DNA from: Tagaea sp.
GTDB taxonomy: Bacteria; Pseudomonadota; Alphaproteobacteria; CACIAM-22H2
Direction of reading: 5' to 3'
Length of the DNA: 64,000 bases
NCBI GenBank assembly: GCA_965228135.1
Contig: OZ245798.1
Coordinates: 1,469,220 to 1,533,219 of the forward strand
In this document: positions 1,591 through 12,604 of the stretch, in pieces
Position numbering within the stretch: the first letter of the stretch is position 1
How the letters are laid out: every line of letters begins with the position of its first letter
Notes under the pieces: model-generated
Told to the model about the DNA's origin: nothing
Databases searched by the model: none
The model's input: the letters and a program-made list of their open reading frames with translations, nothing else
Position numbers and translations under genes: made by a program

Positions 1591-2238
1591 TCAGCGCGCC
1601 ATAAACCCGTTGCGCATCATGCCGCGCATCGCCTCGAACAGTTTCGAGCGCTCCGACCACGCAAAGTCGGGATATGTGATGAGCAGCGAGACAAGCCCGT
1701 GGACGCTCGCCCAGATCGCCTCCGCCGTCGCGGCCGGATCGCCTTTGCGGAATATCCCCTCGTCCATCAGCCGCTTCACAAGAACCTCAAGCGCGCCGAA
1801 CGCTTGCTGGCCCTGATCGGCCGGATCGCGCGCCTTATCGGGGCGGTTGCGATGCCCCGGAACAAAAGCGGGCGCTTCGCTCATAAACAGCAAACGGTAC
1901 TCGCGCGGATGCGCGAAGCCGAATTGCATATAGACGTCGAAGAATCGCTCGAACGCATCGGACGGATTTTTGGCTTCGCGGCCCACGCGTGCGAAACCCT
2001 CGGCCAAAACGCGCATGGCGTCCTGGCAGATGGCGTGCATCAGCGTCTCTTTGTCCGCGAAATACAGATAGAGCGTCGTCGGCGTGATCCCAAGCTGCGT
2101 TGCGATACGACGCATCGTCGTGCGCGCATAGCCTTCCTTAAGGAATATGTCCTTGGCCGCGTCGAGGATCGTTTGGCGGCGTTCCGTTGCCGTCAAACGG
2201 GCGCGGCGGATCTTCTTCCTGGCGGGCTTGCGGGGCAT
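1591..2238 (-). CDS. TetR/AcrR family transcriptional regulator
   Basis: N-terminal HTH (TILDAAKDIFLKEGYARTTMRRIATQLGITPTTLYLYF) and TetR C-terminal ligand domain; divergent from an efflux operon. Confidence 0.85.
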   Translation of the reverse strand: MPRKPARKKIRRARLTATERRQTILDAAKDIFLKEGYARTTMRRIATQLGITPTTLYLYFADKETLMHAICQDAMRVLAEGFARVGREAKNPSDAFERFFDVYMQFGFAHPREYRLLFMSEAPAFVPGHRNRPDKARDPADQGQQAFGALEVLVKRLMDEGIFRKGDPAATAEAIWASVHGLVSLLITYPDFAWSERSKLFEAMRGMMRNGFMAR

Positions 2239-2288
2239 GCTTCCGGCTTACACTTTGCGGACGGGATTGGCGAGTGGCTTGACGCGAT

Positions 2289-2321
2289 ATAATAACATTG
2301 TTAACTTAACATCGTTATTAT
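2289..2321. promoter_or_regulatory. Palindromic candidate TetR operator in the TetR/efflux divergent intergenic region
   Basis: ATAATAAC-N17-GTTATTAT exact inverted arms with an internal GTTAAC palindrome, AT-rich, 18 nt upstream of the permease start. Confidence 0.4.
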
Positions 2322-2339
2322 TTTTCGACAAGGATCTTC

Positions 2340-3482
2340 ATGTCCATCTCTCCGGGCCTTCGCGACCTGCTCGCCTGGCGCAATCTTGCGCACGACAAGG
2401 TGCGGTTCCTCGTCACCTTGATCGGCATCGTCTTCTCCGTGACGCTGATGGCGGTCCAAACCGGCCTTCTCACCGGCTTCGTGACGACGATCTCGAAAAT
2501 CGTCGACAAGACCGACGCCGATTTATGGCTTGTGGGCCGCGGCGTGCGTTCGGTCGATCTGCCGGCGAACATTCCCGAACGGCGCCGCTTTCAGGTTCTC
2601 GGCGTCGACGGCGTCGCCGCCGCCGATCCTTTCATGCATGTCTTCGCGCAGATGAAGCGCCCGGATGGCGGCGCCGAAAGCGTCGCGGTCGTGGGCTTCG
2701 ATCTCGCCACCGGGCGCGGAGGCCCCTGGGGTCTGGTCGAGGGCGATATCGCCGATCTGGCCCTGCCCGACGCGGTGGTGATGGATCGGCTCTATAAGAA
2801 GAAGCTCGGTGTTGAACGTATCGGCCAAACGATCGAGGTGAACGGCCGGCGCGCGCGCGTCGTCGGTTTCACCGACGGCATTCGCACCTTCACCCAAAGC
2901 CCGCATCTGTTCGCCGACATCAAGACGGCGCGATATCTGACCGGCTACGGCGAGGATCGGCTGAACTACGTGCTGATCGAAACCGCCCGCGACGCCGATC
3001 CACAGGCCGTCGCCGCGCGCATACGCGCACTGCTGCCCGATATCGACGTCTATACCAAAGCCGAATTCTCGACGCGGTCGTCGATGTATTGGCTGGTGAC
3101 GACGGGGGCGGGCTTCTCGCTGGTCATCGCGTCGGCGCTCGGTCTTATCGTCGGCATGGTCGTGACCGCGCAAACGCTTTACGCGACGACGATGGACCGT
3201 CTGCCGGAATACGCGACGCTGCGCGCGATGGGGGCGCCGGGAAGCTATCTCTACGGCGTCATCCTGCGCCAAGCGGCGATCGCAGCGGTCTTCGGATTCG
3301 GCGCCGGTATATCCATCGCCGCGTTCATCGTCCATGGCGCGCGCGACGGATCGGCGGCTATCCTCTTGCCCTGGCAGCTCGCCGCGGGTCTGGGCTTGGC
3401 GACATTCGCGATGTGCGCGGCGGCGGCGGTGATCTCCATCCGGCGCGTCATGGCCATCGATCCCGTATCGGTGTTCAAATGA
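2340..3482 (+). CDS. ABC transporter permease, FtsX/MacB/DevC family
   Basis: N-terminal TM, large periplasmic domain, C-terminal 3-TM FtsX-like domain; stop overlaps the next start (ATGA). Confidence 0.8.
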   Translation: MSISPGLRDLLAWRNLAHDKVRFLVTLIGIVFSVTLMAVQTGLLTGFVTTISKIVDKTDADLWLVGRGVRSVDLPANIPERRRFQVLGVDGVAAADPFMHVFAQMKRPDGGAESVAVVGFDLATGRGGPWGLVEGDIADLALPDAVVMDRLYKKKLGVERIGQTIEVNGRRARVVGFTDGIRTFTQSPHLFADIKTARYLTGYGEDRLNYVLIETARDADPQAVAARIRALLPDIDVYTKAEFSTRSSMYWLVTTGAGFSLVIASALGLIVGMVVTAQTLYATTMDRLPEYATLRAMGAPGSYLYGVILRQAAIAAVFGFGAGISIAAFIVHGARDGSAAILLPWQLAAGLGLATFAMCAAAAVISIRRVMAIDPVSVFK

Positions 3483-4183
3483 CGGCACTGGTCGAAGTCG
3501 CGGACGCGCGCGTCGTCTACGGCGCGGGCGAAGCCTCAATCGAAGCGCTCAAGGGCGTCTCGCTGGAGGTGCGCAAGGGCGAGATTCTGATGCTGATGGG
3601 CCCGTCGGGCTCTGGCAAGACGACGCTGCTGCAGGTCGCGGGCGCGCTGCTGTCGCCGACCGCCGGCACCGTGCGCCTTGCCGGCGAACGGATCGACGGA
3701 ATGACGCAGGAAAATCTCGGCCGCCGGCGCCTGCGCCATTTCGGTTTCGTCTTCCAACATTACAATCTGTTCCCCGCGTTGACGGCGGCCGAGAATGTCG
3801 CGATCGCGCTCGATCTCAAAGGCGTGCCCGCCGCACGGCGCCGCGCGGCCGCCCACGAAGCGCTCGACCGCGTCGGCCTGGGCGATCGCGCGGCGCATTT
3901 CCCCTCGCAGCTCTCGGGCGGCCAAAAACAGCGCGTCGCGATCGCGCGCGCGCTGGCGGGCGAACCCGACGCGATTCTCGCCGACGAGCCGACCGCCGCA
4001 CTCGACAGCGCGTCGGGCAAGCGCGTCGTCGATCTGCTGCACGACCTCGCCAAAGCGCAAGGCCGAGCGGTGGTGCTCGTCACGCACGACCCGCGCATCG
4101 TCGAAGCTGCCGACCGCATCGTCCATATCGAAGACGGACGAATTCGCGACGCCGCCGAACAGCCCCTTCCAGCCGAGGCCTGA
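3479..4183 (+). CDS. ABC transporter ATP-binding protein (MacB/LolD-type)
   Basis: Walker A GPSGSGKTT, signature LSGGQKQR, Walker B ILADEPT, H-loop. The listed ORF 3089..4183 is an artefactual N-terminal extension; the true ATG at 3479 overlaps the upstream stop. Confidence 0.85.
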   Translation: MTALVEVADARVVYGAGEASIEALKGVSLEVRKGEILMLMGPSGSGKTTLLQVAGALLSPTAGTVRLAGERIDGMTQENLGRRRLRHFGFVFQHYNLFPALTAAENVAIALDLKGVPAARRRAAAHEALDRVGLGDRAAHFPSQLSGGQKQRVAIARALAGEPDAILADEPTAALDSASGKRVVDLLHDLAKAQGRAVVLVTHDPRIVEAADRIVHIEDGRIRDAAEQPLPAEA

Positions 4184-4184
4184 C

Positions 4185-5243
4185 ATGAACCGGAAACTCT
4201 CCCTCACTCTTGCCGTCCTCGCGATCGGTGCAGGTGCGGCGACGCTGCCGATGATCGGCGGTCCGTCGGCGCAAACGCCGTCCGCCCCGCAGACTTTCCG
4301 CGCCGCCCTTCCGGCGGGGGCGATCGCCGCGCCGGGGCGCGTCGAACCTGTGGGCGAGGAGCGCGACATCGCGGCGGAATTGCGCGGCCGGCTTGCCGCC
4401 GTTCTCGTCGACGAAGGCGACAAGGTCGAGGAAGGTCAGATCCTGGCCGAAATCGTCGACGGCGAATATCGCGCGCGCGTAATGGCGATGCGGGGATTGG
4501 TCGCTGTGCGCGAGGCCGAGCTCGCGCGCGCGTTGGCCGGTTCGCGCACGCAAGAACGCCGAGAAGCGGCCGCGATGGTACGCGAGGCGCAAGCCTCGCT
4601 CGATCAGGCCCGGATCGATCTCGCGCGGCGCGAGCCGCTCGCCGCTCAGGGGCATGTTTCCCGCGAGACGCTCGACAAAACGCGCTCCGACGTCACCGCC
4701 GCCGAGGCGCGCCTTCGCGCCAAGCGTGAGCGCGCCGATCTGCTCGATGCCGGCAGCCGCAGCGAAGATGTCGCCGTGGCGCGCGCCCTTCTCGACCAAG
4801 CGCGCGGGCAACTCGCCGAGGCCGAAGCCTTTCTTGAGAAAACGCGGGTGCGCAGCCCGATCGCGGGCGTGGTCCTGCATCGCTTCAAACGCTCGGGCGA
4901 AGGCGTTTCGGATCAGCCGCCGACGCCGATCGTCAAACTGGGGGATATCTCGGAGCTTCGGGTCCGTGTCGATGTCGACGAGACCGATGTCGGCCGTGTC
5001 GCGGTCGGTCAGCGGGCATTCGTCACCGCCGACGCTTGGTCGGGCCGACGGTTTCAGGGAACGGTCATCCGGGTGGGGCAACGCCTCGGCCGCAAGACGT
5101 TGCGCACCGACGATCCGACCGAACGGAACGATACCAAAGTCCTCGAGACCTTGGTGGCTCTGGATCCGGTCGAGATCGCCTTGCCGACCGGTCTTCGCGT
5201 CGACGCGTTCATCCTGACGGCGCCGCAGATCGCTTCCCGGTGA
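4185..5243 (+). CDS. HlyD-family periplasmic adaptor (membrane fusion protein)
   Basis: Signal/TM MNRKLSLTLAVLAIGAGAA, coiled-coil hairpin, beta-barrel and lipoyl motifs (PIAGVV...). The listed ORF 3795..5243 is an extension through the ATPase gene. Confidence 0.75.
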   Translation: MNRKLSLTLAVLAIGAGAATLPMIGGPSAQTPSAPQTFRAALPAGAIAAPGRVEPVGEERDIAAELRGRLAAVLVDEGDKVEEGQILAEIVDGEYRARVMAMRGLVAVREAELARALAGSRTQERREAAAMVREAQASLDQARIDLARREPLAAQGHVSRETLDKTRSDVTAAEARLRAKRERADLLDAGSRSEDVAVARALLDQARGQLAEAEAFLEKTRVRSPIAGVVLHRFKRSGEGVSDQPPTPIVKLGDISELRVRVDVDETDVGRVAVGQRAFVTADAWSGRRFQGTVIRVGQRLGRKTLRTDDPTERNDTKVLETLVALDPVEIALPTGLRVDAFILTAPQIASR

Positions 5244-5750: not shown

Positions 5751-6179
5751 TCACAACTTTGGCGGTGGAGGCGCCGACGTCGGGACCGACGCGATGTGCA
5801 TTCTATCCAGCATCGCCTGAAGGTGCGCGACGGCGGCATCCGACAGCACGAGATACGCGCGACGCCGGTCGCGCGTATCCGCCTCGCGCTGAATCACACC
5901 AAGTCGAATCAAATCATAGATACGCCTCAAAGACGTCGTCTGCGTCCCCCCCGAAGCCAGGCAAAGGCTCGACACCGAAATTCTACGCCCCCGCAGCATC
6001 GACAAATAGAGATCCAACATCATGAACCATGAGTGATCGCGAAATGCGCCGCTCGGCCAAGGTCCATTTTGAGTATCCCGCACGCTTAGCAACGCTTCGA
6101 GTTGCGAAACACGTCTAAAATTGTCCTCGACGCTCATGTCACAACCAGTTCGAATCGATCGTAAGAGATTTCCGCCCAC
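5751..6179 (-). CDS. Winged-helix (MarR-like) transcriptional regulator
   Basis: ISVSSLCLASGGTQTTSLRRIYDLIRLGVIQREADTRDRRRAYLVLSD is a typical MarR recognition-helix plus wing with DRRR. Low-GC region. Alternative start at M15 (nt 6137). Confidence 0.55.
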   Translation of the reverse strand: MGGNLLRSIRTGCDMSVEDNFRRVSQLEALLSVRDTQNGPWPSGAFRDHSWFMMLDLYLSMLRGRRISVSSLCLASGGTQTTSLRRIYDLIRLGVIQREADTRDRRRAYLVLSDAAVAHLQAMLDRMHIASVPTSAPPPPKL

Positions 6180-6188
6180 GCCTTCGAC

Positions 6189-6662
6189 TTATTGCGGGAG
6201 GGGAACGAAGATATCGGCCATCGAACTCCGTACGAGACGAACCGGGAATGATTTTTTCCCCAAGTCTTCGTCGAAGATGCGTTTGACGTCCGAAAGCGAG
6301 CGCGCTTCGACCGCGAAAATATAGAAGTCGTGAAACGCACCCCGCTCGATCTTCGGCGACTTCAAACCGTTTTCGTATGCGACATTCGCGCGATCGAAAT
6401 CCTCGAAGAACCCAAACTCGCGAGTACATATAGGAATCGAACGCATATCGCCGACATGTCCCACCGGTCTCGTCACCGTGAACTTGAAATCGCCGTCGAC
6501 AGCCTCATGCACGGCCCAGTTATCGAGATCGAAAAACCAGCCGCTCAATGAGAGGGGAATATTGGCGCCATGCCGATGCTCCAACACGTAGAACTCCCGT
6601 TTGCGGCGGAGGATCCGAACGTTAAAGCCGATCGCTTTTGTAAGCCTTACAAGAATACGCAT
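6189..6662 (-). CDS. Hypothetical protein (157 aa), no recognisable motifs
   Basis: Intact ORF in the low-GC island, 9 nt upstream of the MarR-like gene and 116 nt downstream of the FlaF-like gene (operon-like). Confidence 0.45.
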   Translation of the reverse strand: MRILVRLTKAIGFNVRILRRKREFYVLEHRHGANIPLSLSGWFFDLDNWAVHEAVDGDFKFTVTRPVGHVGDMRSIPICTREFGFFEDFDRANVAYENGLKSPKIERGAFHDFYIFAVEARSLSDVKRIFDEDLGKKSFPVRLVRSSMADIFVPLPQ

Positions 6663-6778: not shown

Positions 6779-7162
6779 CTATCCGGATGGCGAGGCTTCC
6801 GGCTGCGGCTCCAAACTCAATCCCTCCATAACAATCCTGTTGATCGACGCCAGGAAGTCGACGTCCGTTTCCGAGTACTGCCGAATTGCGGCGTTCGATA
6901 TCCCATTGACGACGACGGCAAGCTCCGCGACCAGTTTCTTCGTCGCGGCGGGCAACCTGTTGTCCTGATGGGTCACATCCAAAGCGAACGCATTCCAAAC
7001 CTCGCGGTTGTGCTGAACCGCGTCTAAAAACGATGCGAGCGACTGCGGATCCGTGGCCCCGAACCCCTTCTTCGCCGCGATCAGCTTCTCATTCAGCCGA
7101 TCGAGAAGAAGGTATTCCCGCCTACGTGCCGGCATCGCCTCCCACTCCTCACGTCCGAACAT
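6779..7162 (-). CDS. flaF: FlaF-family protein (flagellin translation regulator homolog), orphan copy
   Basis: Matches the FlaF family pattern: RREYLLL near the N-terminus, NREVWNAFALDV...DNRLP...KKLVAELAVVV, and DVDFLASINRIVMEGL near the C-terminus. GGGAGG SD upstream of the Met at 7162; the listed ORF extends to 7222. Confidence 0.5.
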   Translation of the reverse strand: MFGREEWEAMPARRREYLLLDRLNEKLIAAKKGFGATDPQSLASFLDAVQHNREVWNAFALDVTHQDNRLPAATKKLVAELAVVVNGISNAAIRQYSETDVDFLASINRIVMEGLSLEPQPEASPSG

Positions 7163-7289
7163 CCATGTTCCTCCCGGTTTCCTTCCGAAGCTCGTTTGTA
7201 GGTGACGCCATCCGCGCCACACTTCTTCGACAACGATCGGTCTCAGCCGCGCACCAAAGCGGGGCGCATCGCCCGAAGGAGATCGACAC

Positions 7290-7560
7290 CGAAGCCAGCA
7301 ACACTTGGTTTATTATTATTTTTTCTTTACATCGTCATTTTTTTACCATCTTTTTTTAGACGACCTTCGACAGAGAGCATCGCCAAACCACTCCACCCCG
7401 CCTTATGTCAATCAACGCGGGACCGATACCATCGGTGTGCGCAAGCGAAACCAAGCCCGGATTCGTCTAAAAATTTTAAACATAATCCCGCAGACCAAAG
7501 AATACATATTCCACGCGCGAAAGAGCGTTTTCATGCAAGCGGTCCAATTCTGAGGGTCGT
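7290..7560 (-). promoter_or_regulatory. AT-rich putative promoter/5' leader region upstream of the FlaF-like operon
   Basis: Very AT-rich tract (tattattattttttctttacatcgtcatttttttaccatctttttttag) in otherwise GC-rich DNA, with no credible coding frame. Confidence 0.3.
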
Positions 7561-7698
7561 CTCGCTCGGGCGCGAAAGGCGATTCGCGATTTGGGAGCGA
7601 AAATGCATGCCAGTGATGGTGAAGCTCCAACGCACGAGATTTTTTCCGATCGATCGTCGGATCAAATCGACTGCGTGTCGGGAAGCGTTGCGCGCTCA

Positions 7699-7992
7699 TC
7701 AACGCATCTTCACCCATTCCATGTCGATCCGCGTTCGCACTGAAAGCTCTGTCCCGGTTGGCGCCGCGTGAAATCGCAAAATCTGAAAGGGCTTACGGAA
7801 AACCAATACCGCCGACGCGGAGCGAACCGCGACGATCCGACGCCAGCCGAGATACGACAACAGCTCGTCGAGTGTTCGCATGACATCCTCGACCTTGCCA
7901 TCGACCTCCAAGGTTCCGATCTCGTCCCTCCGCAGCAGGAACGACTCCAACCAGGCCGGCTGTCGGACAATCGCTTTGGAAGCTAAAGACAT
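7699..7992 (-). CDS. Hypothetical protein (97 aa)
   Basis: ORF whose start overlaps the 3' end of the 411-aa gene by 10 nt (coupled); low-GC island. Confidence 0.4.
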   Translation of the reverse strand: MSLASKAIVRQPAWLESFLLRRDEIGTLEVDGKVEDVMRTLDELLSYLGWRRIVAVRSASAVLVFRKPFQILRFHAAPTGTELSVRTRIDMEWVKMR

Positions 7993-9218
7993 TTTCCATC
8001 CGACTGGCTGTTCAAAGTCACGTTAATTCTGGTCAACATCTCTTCGAGCTCTTCAGTCGTCAAACGCTTTGCCACGGCGGCCCCCGTATAGCGCTGAAAG
8101 ATGCTTGAGCAGTGCCGTAACGCCATCGAGCAGTACCCAAGAACCCAGTAATACTTATCGACATTCCCGAGAAAATTCCGGAACGCAGCGGGCTTTCCCT
8201 CGGACATCAGCTGTCGATGGCTATCGTTGTACTTCTTGAACACTTCGATCATTTGCTGGGAAACGGTCCGTAGCTTTTCGCGGACGGAGGACTTGAACAT
8301 TCGTTGTTGCTCCAGGCGGGACCGGTCCGGCCGATCCTTGGGCTCCGATGCCGCCGAAACAAGCCAATCCAACAGCGCTTCGATGCCCGGCCGCGCTTTC
8401 TCGAAATTCACGCGATAGAAGGCAATTCCTTTCCATCCTTCGATCACCGATCTTGCGCTTGAGCTTGATATGCCCAGCGCGCCGAGAAACACCTCCGCGT
8501 CCGATTGCTCCGGATTCCAGAGCGAGTCGAGGAACGCTTCGGTTCTCTCGTTCACGAGATGGGGGGCCTCAAGCCGCAACGCTCTGGCGACGATCGGACG
8601 AAGCTTCTCCGAGATCACTTCGCGTACCGCCAATTCCTCGTCCTTAGAGATCAAGAAATACGAAGGATCGATTTCATCAAGACAGAATGACAGGGCGCCT
8701 TTCAGCAGGAATGGGTCAAGGGAAGGAATTCCATCGATCGCCTTCAATATGGCGACATCCCGCTCGTAGGCGACGCTGCTTTCCTGCAGATCGAGACCGA
8801 TATGTCGTTTCAACAGCGCCTCGAAATCGCGCTGACGCAGATAGATTCCGTATCCGCCAGAGAACAGATCGCTCGGATCGTGGGGAATATATATAGCCGT
8901 CTCTATCGGCCGCTTGGCCCCCGGTTTCTTCTGCACCGCCACCGCGGCGTTTACTTTCGAGGAACCGCGAGCTTCTTTCGCCGCATCCCAGCTGGCATCT
9001 GATATGTCTCGATCGAAATTCGGGTATTTGAATATCACCGTGTGATTGAGAAAGGTGCATCGGAATATCTTCGCGGCGGCGGGAACGTCGTTTGATTTGA
9101 TCAAATTCAACGCAACCGACGCGCCGCCGTTGCATATCTGATCGAGAAGCGGCGACACAAAACGTCTCGCCTTAGCGCCGCTTGCCCCCCCTGTCTGGCT
9201 CACTTCATTCGGCGACAT
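7983..9218 (-). CDS. Hypothetical protein (411 aa), no recognisable catalytic motifs
   Basis: Long uninterrupted ORF in the low-GC island with protein-like composition, downstream of the receiver-domain gene. Confidence 0.5.
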   Translation of the reverse strand: MSPNEVSQTGGASGAKARRFVSPLLDQICNGGASVALNLIKSNDVPAAAKIFRCTFLNHTVIFKYPNFDRDISDASWDAAKEARGSSKVNAAVAVQKKPGAKRPIETAIYIPHDPSDLFSGGYGIYLRQRDFEALLKRHIGLDLQESSVAYERDVAILKAIDGIPSLDPFLLKGALSFCLDEIDPSYFLISKDEELAVREVISEKLRPIVARALRLEAPHLVNERTEAFLDSLWNPEQSDAEVFLGALGISSSSARSVIEGWKGIAFYRVNFEKARPGIEALLDWLVSAASEPKDRPDRSRLEQQRMFKSSVREKLRTVSQQMIEVFKKYNDSHRQLMSEGKPAAFRNFLGNVDKYYWVLGYCSMALRHCSSIFQRYTGAAVAKRLTTEELEEMLTRINVTLNSQSDGKCL

Positions 9219-9334: not shown

Positions 9335-9766
9335 TTATCGGACTGGCTGCGTTTCTTTTAGAATTGCGTTCAGCTGCTGCGCCGATGGCGGCTTCGCAAG
9401 CACGGACACTAGATCGACACCGGATAACCGTTTTTTTACGTCGTCCAGTTCTTTGGAAAGACAGAATACAAAAAATGGTGTGTTCTGAAGGCGCGGAACG
9501 AAGCGAGATAACGCAACGAGCTGGGCCCCCGTAAAGTATCGAAGTGCCTGATCCAATATTATTGCCGAGAACCGGCTCATGGTTATCAATTCGAATGCTT
9601 GGAAGCCATCTATTGCCAGTTCACAGTCATAACCCTGCTTAGCCAGAACTGATTCACACCTCGAACGCATCAAGTCGCATTTGGAACCGATCAAAAATCG
9701 GCGATCCACTTCAGTGTGAGTTGCGTCCGTTGTTTTTCCGAATCGCACTACCGCTTCTCCGTCCAT
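9335..9766 (-). CDS. Stand-alone receiver (REC/CheY-like) domain protein, atypical
   Basis: Beta-alpha pattern with phosphoacceptor Asp (AIILDQ), conserved Ser (VFCLSKE) and Lys-Pro (LAKPP). The N-terminal acidic pair is replaced (LIGSKCD). Has a 21-aa N-terminal extension. Confidence 0.5.
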   Translation of the reverse strand: MDGEAVVRFGKTTDATHTEVDRRFLIGSKCDLMRSRCESVLAKQGYDCELAIDGFQAFELITMSRFSAIILDQALRYFTGAQLVALSRFVPRLQNTPFFVFCLSKELDDVKKRLSGVDLVSVLAKPPSAQQLNAILKETQPVR

Positions 9767-10342
9767 CGCGTCGAAGCGGTTTGTACGCGCCGGCCTTCTG
9801 CCAGATCAGTTCAAATGTCGGAATTGCACCATCAGGGCAGATGATCTGCGGGATTCAGTATCAAAACTTAGTTCAATATCGACGAACAATTCGATCGCCT
9901 CGCAAATAACGTCGCATTTTTCAATTCATCGCCGGTCGTCGGAACGCGCGGCGCGATATGATTGTGTTGTTGTCGGACGTCTTGTCGGTCTGGCTTCGCG
10001 CCATCGGCATCGAGGGACCGCCGGCGATGAAGATACCAAAGTCTCCGGCAATTGCTTGCTCATCAAAGGACTGAAGACGATCGAACGATTGATCCAAGCC
10101 AAGTACTCCCCTGACGTCGCCATTCGGCCCTTCAGTTTGGATTGAATCTTTTTCATTCGAGACCGACGGCAGCTCATTCTTACGTTCGACGGCCTCGGCA
10201 ATCCGAGTAGCGGAGTAATAAGAGATCGTGCGCCTATTTGATGGATACAATTCTTCGCAGCGCTCATCAGTTACGCTTCAGCCAATTGGCATGAACTTAA
10301 AATGTTGCGATTTGGTAGGCTTCGTCTCTCGTGGAGAACAGA

Positions 10343-12604
10343 ATGTCTGGGCTGCTTTCGCGTCTACGTATTTCGCTCCAAGTATCGCTTATCGGTATCG
10401 TCGGAGTACTGGGTCTGGTCGCGGTCGGCGCGATCTATTTCGTGGGAAGCGCCAATCAGCAACGTACGCAAGCCTTCGCCGATCGGCAGGGCGCCCTCGA
10501 CGATCGGCTGAAAGCCCTCGACATCGACCTGTTGCAGACACGCCGCCACGAGAAGGACTTTTTGCTCCGGCGCGAGGAGACTTACGTCGCGCGTCACGCC
10601 GCCGCCCAGCAAGCGGCGGCCAAGAATCTCGCCGCGATCCTGTCGGGCGCAAGTGACGCCGAACTTCGCGCGGACGCCCAGAAGGTGCAAGCGGGCCTTG
10701 ATCTGTACCGCCAGCAATTCGCCACCGTCGTCGCCGAGCAGACGAAACTCGGCTTGAACGAGAGTTCCGGCCTGCAAGGCACGCTGCGCCGATCGGTGCA
10801 GGCGGTCGAAGCCGCACTCGCGCGCCACGACTTGCCGCGCCTGGCGGTCACGATGCTGATGATGCGCCGGCACGAGAAGGACTACATCCTCCGCGGCGCA
10901 GCAAGCTACGGCGAAGATATGAAGAAACGCGCGGCCGAGTTCGCGGCCGCCTTGCCCGCCGCCAATCTGCCAGCCGCCGAACGCGACCAAATCGTCCAGC
11001 TGATGGACGCCTACCACCGCGATTTCGCGGAATTCATGTCGACCGATCAGAAACTCCGTGCCGACATACGCAAATTGTCGGAGGCCTACGCGGCGCTCGA
11101 ACCCGAACTCGATCGGATGGCAAAGCGTATCGTTTCGGCGCAGGAAGTCGCGCTCGCCGAGCTCGCCGCAAATCGCGAAGCGACGGCAGCGACGCTCGGG
11201 ACGACGATCGCGATCGTGACGCTGCTCGTCGCACTGCTCGCCTTCGTCATCAGCCGCGGCATCGTCCGGCCGGTGACGTCGCTGACCGGCACGATGGCGC
11301 GCCTCGCCGCCGGCGATCTCGATGTCGCGATCGACGGTGCCGCGCGCAAGGACGAGTTGGGCGCTATGGCGCGCTCGGTCGAGGTCTTCAAGGAAAACGC
11401 GATGGAAGCGCGCCGACTGCGCGCCGAGCAAGCGCGCGCGGCCGAAGAAGCCGAACGGCAGAAGAAACAGGCGCTGATGGATATGGCCGACACGGTCGAA
11501 CGCGAGACCGCCAACGCGCTCGCCGCGATTGCGAAGAATACGCTCCAGGTCAATGGCGCAGCCGAAAGCATGTCGAGTCTGGCGCAAGAAGTGACGATGG
11601 ATTCGCAGGCCGTAGCCGCCGCCTCGGAAGAGGCGCTGGTGAACGTGCAAACAGTCTCTTCGGCGGCCGAGGAACTTTCCGCCTCTATTCGTGAAATTGC
11701 GACGCAAGTGGCGCGCGCCTCCAGCGTGACGAAGGGCGCCGTCGAAAGCGGCGAAAAAGCGCGCACGACGATCGGTTCGCTGTCCGAGGCGGTTGCGCGC
11801 ATCTCGGAGGTCGCTAAGTTGATCGGTCAGATCGCCGGACAAACGAATTTGCTGGCGCTCAACGCCACGATCGAAGCCGCACGTGCGGGCGAAGCCGGCA
11901 AGGGATTCGCGGTGGTCGCTTCGGAGGTGAAAAACCTCGCCACGCAGACGGGCCGCTCGACAGAAGATATCGACCGCCAAGTTGCGGAAATCCGCACCGC
12001 GACGGATGCCTCCGTGGCAGCCGTTAGCGAGATCGGCGATCGCATCCGCGAAATCGATTCCGTCGCTACGGCGATCGCCTCGGCGATGGAGGAGCAAGGT
12101 GCGGCGACACAGGAGATTGCGAGAAACGTGGGCCAGACGGCGGACGCTGCGCGCGAGGTCTCCTCGAAGATCCAGAATGTCAGCCGGGAGGCGGATAACG
12201 TAGGCGCACGCGCGAGCGAGGTACGCGGCGCGATCGGAGGCGTCGGCAGAAGCCTGGAAGAGTTGAAGCGTATTCTCGTGCGGGTCGTGCGCACCTCCAC
12301 CGCCGACGCCGACCGGCGCAAGCACGTACGCCATCCGGTCTCGGCGAAGATCGATGTCTCCGACGGCGCCGGCAAAAGAATCGATGCGGTGCTCGTCGAC
12401 GTATCGCTTGGCGGCGCCCATTTCCGCACAGCGTCGACGCTCAAGCGCGACGAGCGCGGCACGATCCGATTCGACGGATTGGCTTCGCCGATCGCCTTTG
12501 TCGTGCGCCTGCGCGAGGCCGACGGGGCGGTACATGTCGAGTTCCCGGCGGGTGCCGCGGGCGAGGATTTCGGCGCTTGGCTTAGCCAGCGCAGTGCGGC
12601 CTAG
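10343..12604 (+). CDS. Methyl-accepting chemotaxis protein with C-terminal PilZ (c-di-GMP-binding) domain, Tlp1-like
   Basis: TM1, periplasmic region with duplicated RRHEKD(F/Y)(L/I)LR motif, TM2, HAMP, MCP signalling domain, then C-terminal RRKHVR...DVSLGGA PilZ motifs. ATG at 10343 preceded by a GGAG SD; the listed GTG at 10331 is in frame. Confidence 0.85.

Follow-up and report, generated by a model that had tools for sequence, protein, structure and literature searches.

The window analyzed here, a 64,000-nt stretch of Tagaea sp. DNA (assembly GCA_965228135.1, contig OZ245798.1, positions 1,469,220 to 1,533,219), carries two overlapping genes on the minus strand that encode proteins of 411 amino acids (aa; 7983..9218) and 97 aa (7699..7992), each starting with ATG. 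The 411-aa protein is a member of a large unannotated family of Rhodospirillales-type alphaproteobacteria, whereas the homologs found for the 97-aa protein are confined to one narrow clade, where each is encoded immediately downstream of a 411-family gene. By the tests applied, neither the family nor its small partner is placeable in any known protein family or system.

Both genes are real and are under purifying selection. In pairwise Nei–Gojobori (NG86) comparisons with four related loci, the ratio of nonsynonymous to synonymous substitution rates (dN/dS) was 0.05–0.08 for the 411-aa gene and 0.08–0.30 for the 97-aa gene, whereas the same DNA of the latter read in its two other frames gave 0.9–6.7; because the in-frame values are low relative to these controls, both open reading frames (ORFs) are considered genuine genes. 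An earlier interpretation of this DNA made from its letters alone (the sequence-only reading) had described both ORFs as intact and had left room for a lack of conservation or of a dN/dS coding signature; the ORFs proved to be conserved genes, and the signature is present in both. One could also regard the 97-aa ORF as no gene at all but a frame left open by chance within the 3' region of the 411-aa gene. This idea draws on the shortness of the ORF, its narrow distribution, and its lack of any family match, but is effectively refuted by the contrast in dN/dS (against about 1–6 in the other frames), by the maintenance of both length and start down to 51% identity, and by a confident AlphaFold2 fold (predicted local distance difference test, pLDDT, 80.6).

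The genes share 10 nt of the minus strand (ATGTCTTTAG, 7983..7992), in which the 411-aa gene ends and the 97-aa gene begins; a GGATGG purine tract precedes them. Within the junction sequence ggatggaaaATGTCTTTAGct, the ATG of the 97-aa gene is positioned 7 nt before the TAG of the 411-aa gene; in the longer form of the junction, ...tcggatggaaaATGTCTTTAGct, this ATG falls within the final codons of the 411-aa gene. The overlap ATGNNNNTAG and the preceding GGA(T/C)GG tract were observed in all 14 loci that have a 97-aa gene, including the most distant of them (L017, 97-aa protein 51% identical), in whose sequence the same ATGTCTCTAG junction is read. Such constant geometry fits translational coupling of the two genes, which had been suggested by the sequence-only reading from the overlap in the window.

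The protein search identified seven clusters of 97-aa homologs (six of exactly 97 aa and one of 91 aa), four further loci came from a metagenome scan, and a hidden Markov model (HMM) of the protein applied to six-frame translations of 96 loci recovered nine, all in the narrow clade. Neither the six-frame HMM search on all loci nor the metagenome scan revealed distant relatives beyond this clade, and the partner is absent in about 90 of the 103 loci carrying the 411-aa family. In the neighbor-joining tree, the partner-bearing copies comprise the window clade and L017/P0010; since the sister copies (L005 and L018/P0009) are without the partner, the 97-aa gene arose or was retained only near the node of the window clade and L017. 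The description of the two ORFs as a gene pair thus holds in one narrow clade but not in general, as hundreds of 411-aa family members have no 97-aa partner.

The 411-aa family and the structure of its proteins

A word-indexed search with the 411-aa protein yielded 55 clusters, and a profile search among 1.84 billion representatives extended the family to 871 proteins (E ≤ 1e-3; 420 at E ≤ 1e-30), each standing for a cluster at 50% identity. Nearly all of the 150 best-scoring family proteins are 340–415 aa long, and all of them align in one stretch. At least 592 family loci were detected in a scan of one genome per species. The named hosts are Azospirillum (many species), Tagaea, Nisaea, Oceanibaculum, Telmatospirillum, Aestuariispira, and Thalassobaculaceae; among the loci listed, the family is present in every Azospirillum species representative recovered. 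Weak relatives were found on Asticcacaulis plasmids. Family members with a plasmid or chromid record number only 6, all annotated as hypothetical, and no viral contig contains a member; a phage or plasmid origin of the family was rejected on these grounds.

Several paralogs per genome are present in some taxa, including three in the metagenome-assembled genome (MAG) JADCGK, and the family is prone to paralogous expansion. Five paralogs occupy scattered positions in the Thalassobaculaceae chromosome OY829383.1 (L029, L032, L033, L070, and L097); L097, the one locus of these that was examined, is located 2 kb from a gene for a methyl-accepting chemotaxis protein (MCP).

No annotation accompanies this abundance. 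The sequence-only reading had allowed for homologs routinely assigned to a known pathway, and every source names the family members "hypothetical protein". The 44 aligned family members have no match in Pfam, NCBIfam, PADLOC, or PHROGs, and the same is true of the 411-aa and 97-aa proteins themselves; comparison with PDB sequences, both single-sequence and profile-based, produced only noise (HasAp, E = 0.2; protein A, E = 0.04). Neither protein contains a hydrophobic or transmembrane segment (maximal Kyte–Doolittle 19-residue mean of 1.1). The earlier remark that neither protein bears a recognizable catalytic, defense, or membrane motif is upheld by profile searches.

The genomic context of the family was compared in about 100 loci. 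The family gene is usually single, with unrelated metabolic, transport, or regulatory neighbors (in Nisaea, Tagaea, Aestuariispira, Thalassobaculaceae, and several metagenomic lineages), and the family members at these loci do not share a conserved operon partner. In 11 Azospirillum species, it is located exactly between fabI and aroC, which argues for a stably inherited chromosomal gene. A recurrent upstream gene for a short-chain dehydrogenase/reductase (SDR; 39 loci) was rejected as a conserved neighbor, being a merger of Azospirillum FabI with an unrelated classical SDR of Tagaea (27% identity). A different setting was observed for the copy on plasmid p5 of A. argentinense (L104, NZ_CP032326.1, 5980–7134), which is found amid IS3, VapBC, PrlF/MazF (MazEF), Fic, BrnT, and HicB genes and is named hypothetical protein by the Prokaryotic Genome Annotation Pipeline (PGAP).

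The alignment of 44 sequences, with identity down to 20%, contains 18 invariant and 28 nearly invariant columns. The invariant positions are F52, K64, T107, P112, G121, D154, L158, the PSLDP-L loop at 165–171, W262, G264, F349, L350, and G361, and the conserved loop reads PSLDPFLL in the family. Structure prediction and a fold search, both proposed in the sequence-only reading, were carried out. The AlphaFold2 model of the 411-aa protein, built with the family alignment, is confident (pLDDT 80.7, predicted template modeling score 0.80) and has no meaningful fold match among solved structures. Its N-terminal part is a four-stranded alpha/beta domain with a disordered insert at 78–100, and its C-terminal part is all-helical, forming a long bundle with helices of 36 and 42 residues.

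The 97-aa protein is basic (isoelectric point 10.1), and its core GWRRIVAVRSASAVLVFRKPFQILR, predicted to form strands, is invariant in the eight close homologs and largely kept in L017. The AlphaFold2 model has an alpha-beta-alpha-beta4 topology and appears to belong to a generic alpha+beta class of folds that includes KA1 domains, SRPBCC proteins, and Eag chaperones; the class is regarded as generic because DUF3568, SRPBCC, and BamC match the model as well as KA1 does. By profile, the protein is not a member of KA1, SRPBCC, or DUF1795, and it has no Pfam, NCBIfam, or PDB-sequence match.

The conserved cassette and its surroundings

In the window and in all close relatives (411-aa protein 76–87% identical), the pair is embedded in a cassette of six co-directional genes, arranged in the order REC-like, 411-aa, 97-aa, a spacer of ~0.5 kb, FlaF-like, 157-aa, and MarR-like winged helix. 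The flanking genes vary between relatives. The cassette keeps the same chromosomal neighborhood in the relatives. The G+C content of the cassette genes in the window (0.49–0.59) is lower than that of their neighbors (0.62–0.69). The three genes downstream of the pair, conserved in the relatives, had gone unmentioned in the sequence-only reading.

The first cassette gene (9335..9766, minus strand) is located 116 nt upstream of the 411-aa gene on the same strand and encodes a 143-aa REC-like pseudo-receiver with a marginal match to Pfam Response_reg (PF00072, 31.5 bits vs. the cut-off of 30.2). An alignment of four homologs with CheY demonstrated that the homologs retain the D57 and K109 equivalents, with D72 and K125-P126 invariant, whereas the Mg-binding acidic pair D12/D13 is replaced by S/A and K/N in all four, and T87 by Phe in three and by Leu in the fourth (L008). 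The gene is conserved in close relatives, is reduced to a remnant of roughly 90 aa in L010 (8277–8546), L011, L012, and L103, where the 411-aa and 97-aa genes and the rest of the cassette are intact, and went undetected in L017, L018, and all more distant family loci.

The sequence-only reading had taken this domain to suggest that the output of the 411-aa and 97-aa proteins is controlled by phosphorylation or by partner-switching. A receiver acting on the pair through a histidine kinase agrees with the position of the gene directly upstream on the same strand, with its conservation in most close relatives, and with the retained Asp57 and Lys109 equivalents. However, the acidic pair and T87 are lost, the Pfam score lies at the threshold, the gene has decayed in a lineage that retains the pair, no histidine kinase gene is present in the cassette, and the REC-like gene accompanies the family only in the close relatives carrying the cassette. 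Because its active site is degenerate, the protein looks like a degenerate pseudo-receiver for which control by phosphorylation is unlikely, and a kinase-driven scheme has very little probability.

The FlaF-like gene (6779..7162, minus strand) encodes 127 aa from an ATG, or 147 aa from an upstream GTG at 7222, and its product matches Pfam PF07309 (E = 1e-15, 58.1 bits vs. the cut-off of 23.6). It is present in all close relatives, and only 9 homolog clusters were obtained in the word-indexed search. A second, differently arranged FlaF-like adjacency of the 411 family was observed in the MAG contig JADCGK010000010.1 (L018, 6172–9164), where a sister paralog that has no 97-aa gene is oriented divergently from a lone fliG (recognized by Pfam FliG_N, FliG_M, and FliG_C), behind which comes a FlaF-like gene; these genes are surrounded not by a flagellar cluster but by genes of the LysR, LysE, and ABC-transporter types.

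The remaining two cassette genes are on the minus strand as well. The conserved 157-aa protein (6189..6662) was detected by tblastn in 7 related loci (74–79% identity) and by jackhmmer in 10 loci, and has no match in Pfam, NCBIfam, PADLOC, PHROGs, or PDB. The last gene (5751..6179) encodes a 142-aa putative DNA-binding protein of the MarR-like winged-helix type, which has weak similarity to HTH_27 (E = 0.005) and MprA (E = 4e-4) and is 72–78% identical in the relatives.

The non-coding spacer between the 97-aa and FlaF-like genes (7223..7698, minus strand; most notably 7452–7497) contains three nucleotide blocks that are conserved in the alignment with L008, L010, L013, and L014, one of them a near-palindrome CGGGATT-N20-AATCCGG with an AT-rich core (TTATGTTTAAAATTTTTAGAC), which is unique in the window. 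The spacer could be a promoter/operator of the FlaF-like operon or a small RNA; no Rfam match was found in it, and Rfam, promoter, and terminator scans of the region from 5.0 to 10.5 kb gave nothing above background. A repeated AATCC(C/G)G element was rejected as a shared operator, being inconsistently conserved in the relatives, and a 101-aa ORF at 7412..7717 was rejected as a gene, its frame being broken by stops in the relatives. Between the REC-like and MCP genes (9767–10330), ORFs of 109 aa and 113 aa have no counterpart in any related locus and are probably non-coding.

On its upstream side, the cassette is flanked by a plus-strand gene (10331–12604), also present in L008 and L013, for a 757-aa MCP with HAMP, MCPsignal, and C-terminal PilZ domains, which resembles the Tlp1 receptor of Azospirillum that binds cyclic di-GMP. 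The other side is bordered by an efflux operon (1591–5243), in which a minus-strand TetR gene is divergent to genes for a MacB-type permease, an ABC ATPase, and an HlyD-family adaptor; the same TetR and MacB genes flank the cassette in L010 and L011. Further away, a plus-strand ORF at 124–1419 with AAA_21/SMC_N ATPase motifs has a low G+C content (0.47, and 0.46 at third codon positions) and looks foreign to the 64% G+C genome. Its match to the PADLOC Ppl model (E = 6.5e-20) is at the C-terminal end of that model, and there are weak matches to AriA, mad3, and LmuB; the product may be a defense-type ABC ATPase or a fragment of one.

Possible function of the 411-aa and 97-aa proteins

We tentatively favor, as a possibility of less than even weight, a role of the two proteins as a stoichiometric regulatory or adaptor complex in a clade-specific cassette that may have a connection to the control of flagella or motility. 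In this scheme, the 411-aa family would consist of soluble cytoplasmic proteins with a short N-terminal alpha/beta domain, the PSLDPFLL loop, and very long helices, normally acting alone and widespread, often in multiple copies, in alphaproteobacteria of the Rhodospirillales/Azospirillales type. In the lineage of the window, one paralog would have acquired a translationally coupled basic partner of 97 aa with a KA1/SRPBCC/Eag-chaperone-like binding fold. We infer synthesis of the two proteins in a fixed ratio and their assembly into a complex, which may serve as a non-catalytic regulatory or adaptor unit. The complex would work within the low-G+C six-gene cassette, together with the pseudo-receiver, the FlaF-like chaperone or regulator, the 157-aa protein, and the MarR-like regulator, and a link of the cassette as a whole to the control of flagella or motility is plausible.

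Consistent with this role are the purifying selection on both genes combined with the overlap in 14 of 14 loci, the restriction of the partner to 411-family genes of one clade, the conservation of the cassette in close relatives while its flanks vary, and the absence of transmembrane segments from both proteins. The fold class of the 97-aa model is typical of binding, regulatory, and chaperone modules rather than enzymes, and most of the 411-aa model is taken up by a long bundle of helices, with no catalytic fold recognizable in it. As for motility, the adjacency to a FlaF-like gene recurs in L018, a gene for an MCP with a PilZ domain flanks the cassette, and FlaF of Caulobacter is a flagellin secretion chaperone that binds and escorts flagellins (PMC7591256). 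These flagellar hints (FlaF-like, fliG, and MCP-PilZ) are the only functional lead, and a weak one. MCP and REC genes are abundant in these bacteria. Several observations weigh against the proposed role. The FlaF-like protein scores below the cut-off of the NCBIfam FlaF equivalog (PRK12794; 58.9 vs. 91 bits), no cassette protein matches an FlbT or flagellin family in Pfam or NCBIfam, and outside the cassette clade flagellar or signaling neighbors are not above chance for genomes rich in MCP and REC genes. Furthermore, the polar residues K64, T107, D154, S166, and D168 of the 411-aa protein are invariant, N58, R103, Q129, R347, and H369 are nearly so, and such conserved polar residues would equally fit an active site.

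The main alternative, suggested because so many invariant residues are polar, is that the 411-aa family represents an enzyme of a new fold, with an active or ligand site built from the invariant K64, T107, D154, S166, and D168 in the N-terminal domain and the PSLDPFLL loop, and that the helix-grip-like 97-aa protein is an accessory subunit binding a small molecule or lipid. The 18 invariant and 28 nearly invariant columns, many of them polar, agree with this explanation, as do the stable core location of the gene, between fabI and aroC, in 11 Azospirillum species and the occurrence of SRPBCC, START, and CoxG ligand-binding proteins among the structural neighbors of the 97-aa model. On the other hand, neither a motif nor a fold of any known catalytic type was found, a closed SRPBCC cavity would not fit into a model as small as that of the 97-aa protein, KA1 matches this model at least as well, and a shared metabolic neighbor is lacking, since the upstream SDR of Tagaea is not FabI. 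An enzymatic role is considered doubtful. Less probable still, and on balance unlikely, is the most far-reaching version, in which the 411 family would have both a new fold and a new function, as an enzyme or a signaling hub specific to Rhodospirillales-type bacteria. In the lineage of the window, it would have joined a newly arisen 97-aa subunit, the pseudo-receiver, and a chaperone of the FlaF type in a regulatory cassette of a new kind, post-transcriptional or secretion-linked, for the flagellar or motility apparatus.

A toxin–antitoxin or anti-phage defense-like module, in which a large effector and a small coupled neutralizer reside on a low-G+C island, is an improbable explanation. The architecture of a large and a small overlapping gene, the atypical G+C content of the cassette, the several paralogs per genome in some taxa, the toxin–antitoxin surroundings of the A. 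argentinense plasmid copy, and the Ppl/AriA-like ATPase ORF about 4.3 kb from the cassette end all speak for it. Nonetheless, the search of PADLOC-DB v2 gave no match for the 411-aa, 97-aa, 157-aa, and 142-aa proteins and only noise-level hits for the REC-like and FlaF-like ones, and relatives are absent from viral contigs. The great majority of the family lacks the small partner, many members occupy housekeeping positions such as that between fabI and aroC, and the cassette is found in the same chromosomal neighborhood in the relatives. The strong purifying selection also differs from the rapid turnover typical of defense genes.

Should the proposed functions hold as well, the family would be a sizeable "dark" one, comprising at least 870 clusters with neither a Pfam or NCBIfam model nor a relative of solved structure. 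Large unannotated families confined to one lineage are not rare, and nothing points to an unusual mechanism; the importance of the finding, which does not alone answer any long-standing question, is moderate. Azospirillum matters in agriculture and is amenable to genetics, so that the conserved gene between fabI and aroC can be tested directly in that genus. The version found in the window, a single-gene family gaining a putatively coupled small subunit and regulatory neighbors, offers a useful example for studying how small partner proteins are born.

Comparison with known systems

Like type II toxin–antitoxin genes, the 411-aa and 97-aa genes overlap, run in the same direction, include a small member, and lie where the G+C content is atypical. 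They differ in that the small gene is located downstream of a core gene that is normally single, no toxin or antitoxin family is matched, and most family members are partnerless. The 143-aa protein is similar to pseudo-receivers in being REC-like and in keeping the D57 and K109 equivalents while the acidic pair and T87 are lost, although its Pfam score is marginal and it is dispensable in one sub-lineage. FlaF (PF07309) and the 127-aa protein share a clear Pfam domain match, but the latter is a FlaF-like paralog with no flbT or flagellin gene beside it and is limited to the same narrow clade as the pair.

The fold of the 97-aa model may resemble that of the Eag-type chaperones of type VI secretion systems with a DUF1795 domain (SciW, PA0094/EagT6) and of SRPBCC/Bet v 1/CoxG helix-grip proteins, with only 4–15% identity. 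The matched proteins are larger (120–150 aa), and in contrast to the DUF1795 Eag chaperones the 97-aa gene has no type VI secretion genes nearby and its product no membership in their sequence family. Similarity to KA1 (kinase-associated-1) domains and to the C-terminal regulatory domain of AMPK-alpha would likewise be one of fold, as identity is only 11–14% and Pfam gives no match; KA1 domains form the C-terminal portion of kinases in eukaryotes, whereas the 97-aa protein is a free-standing bacterial one.

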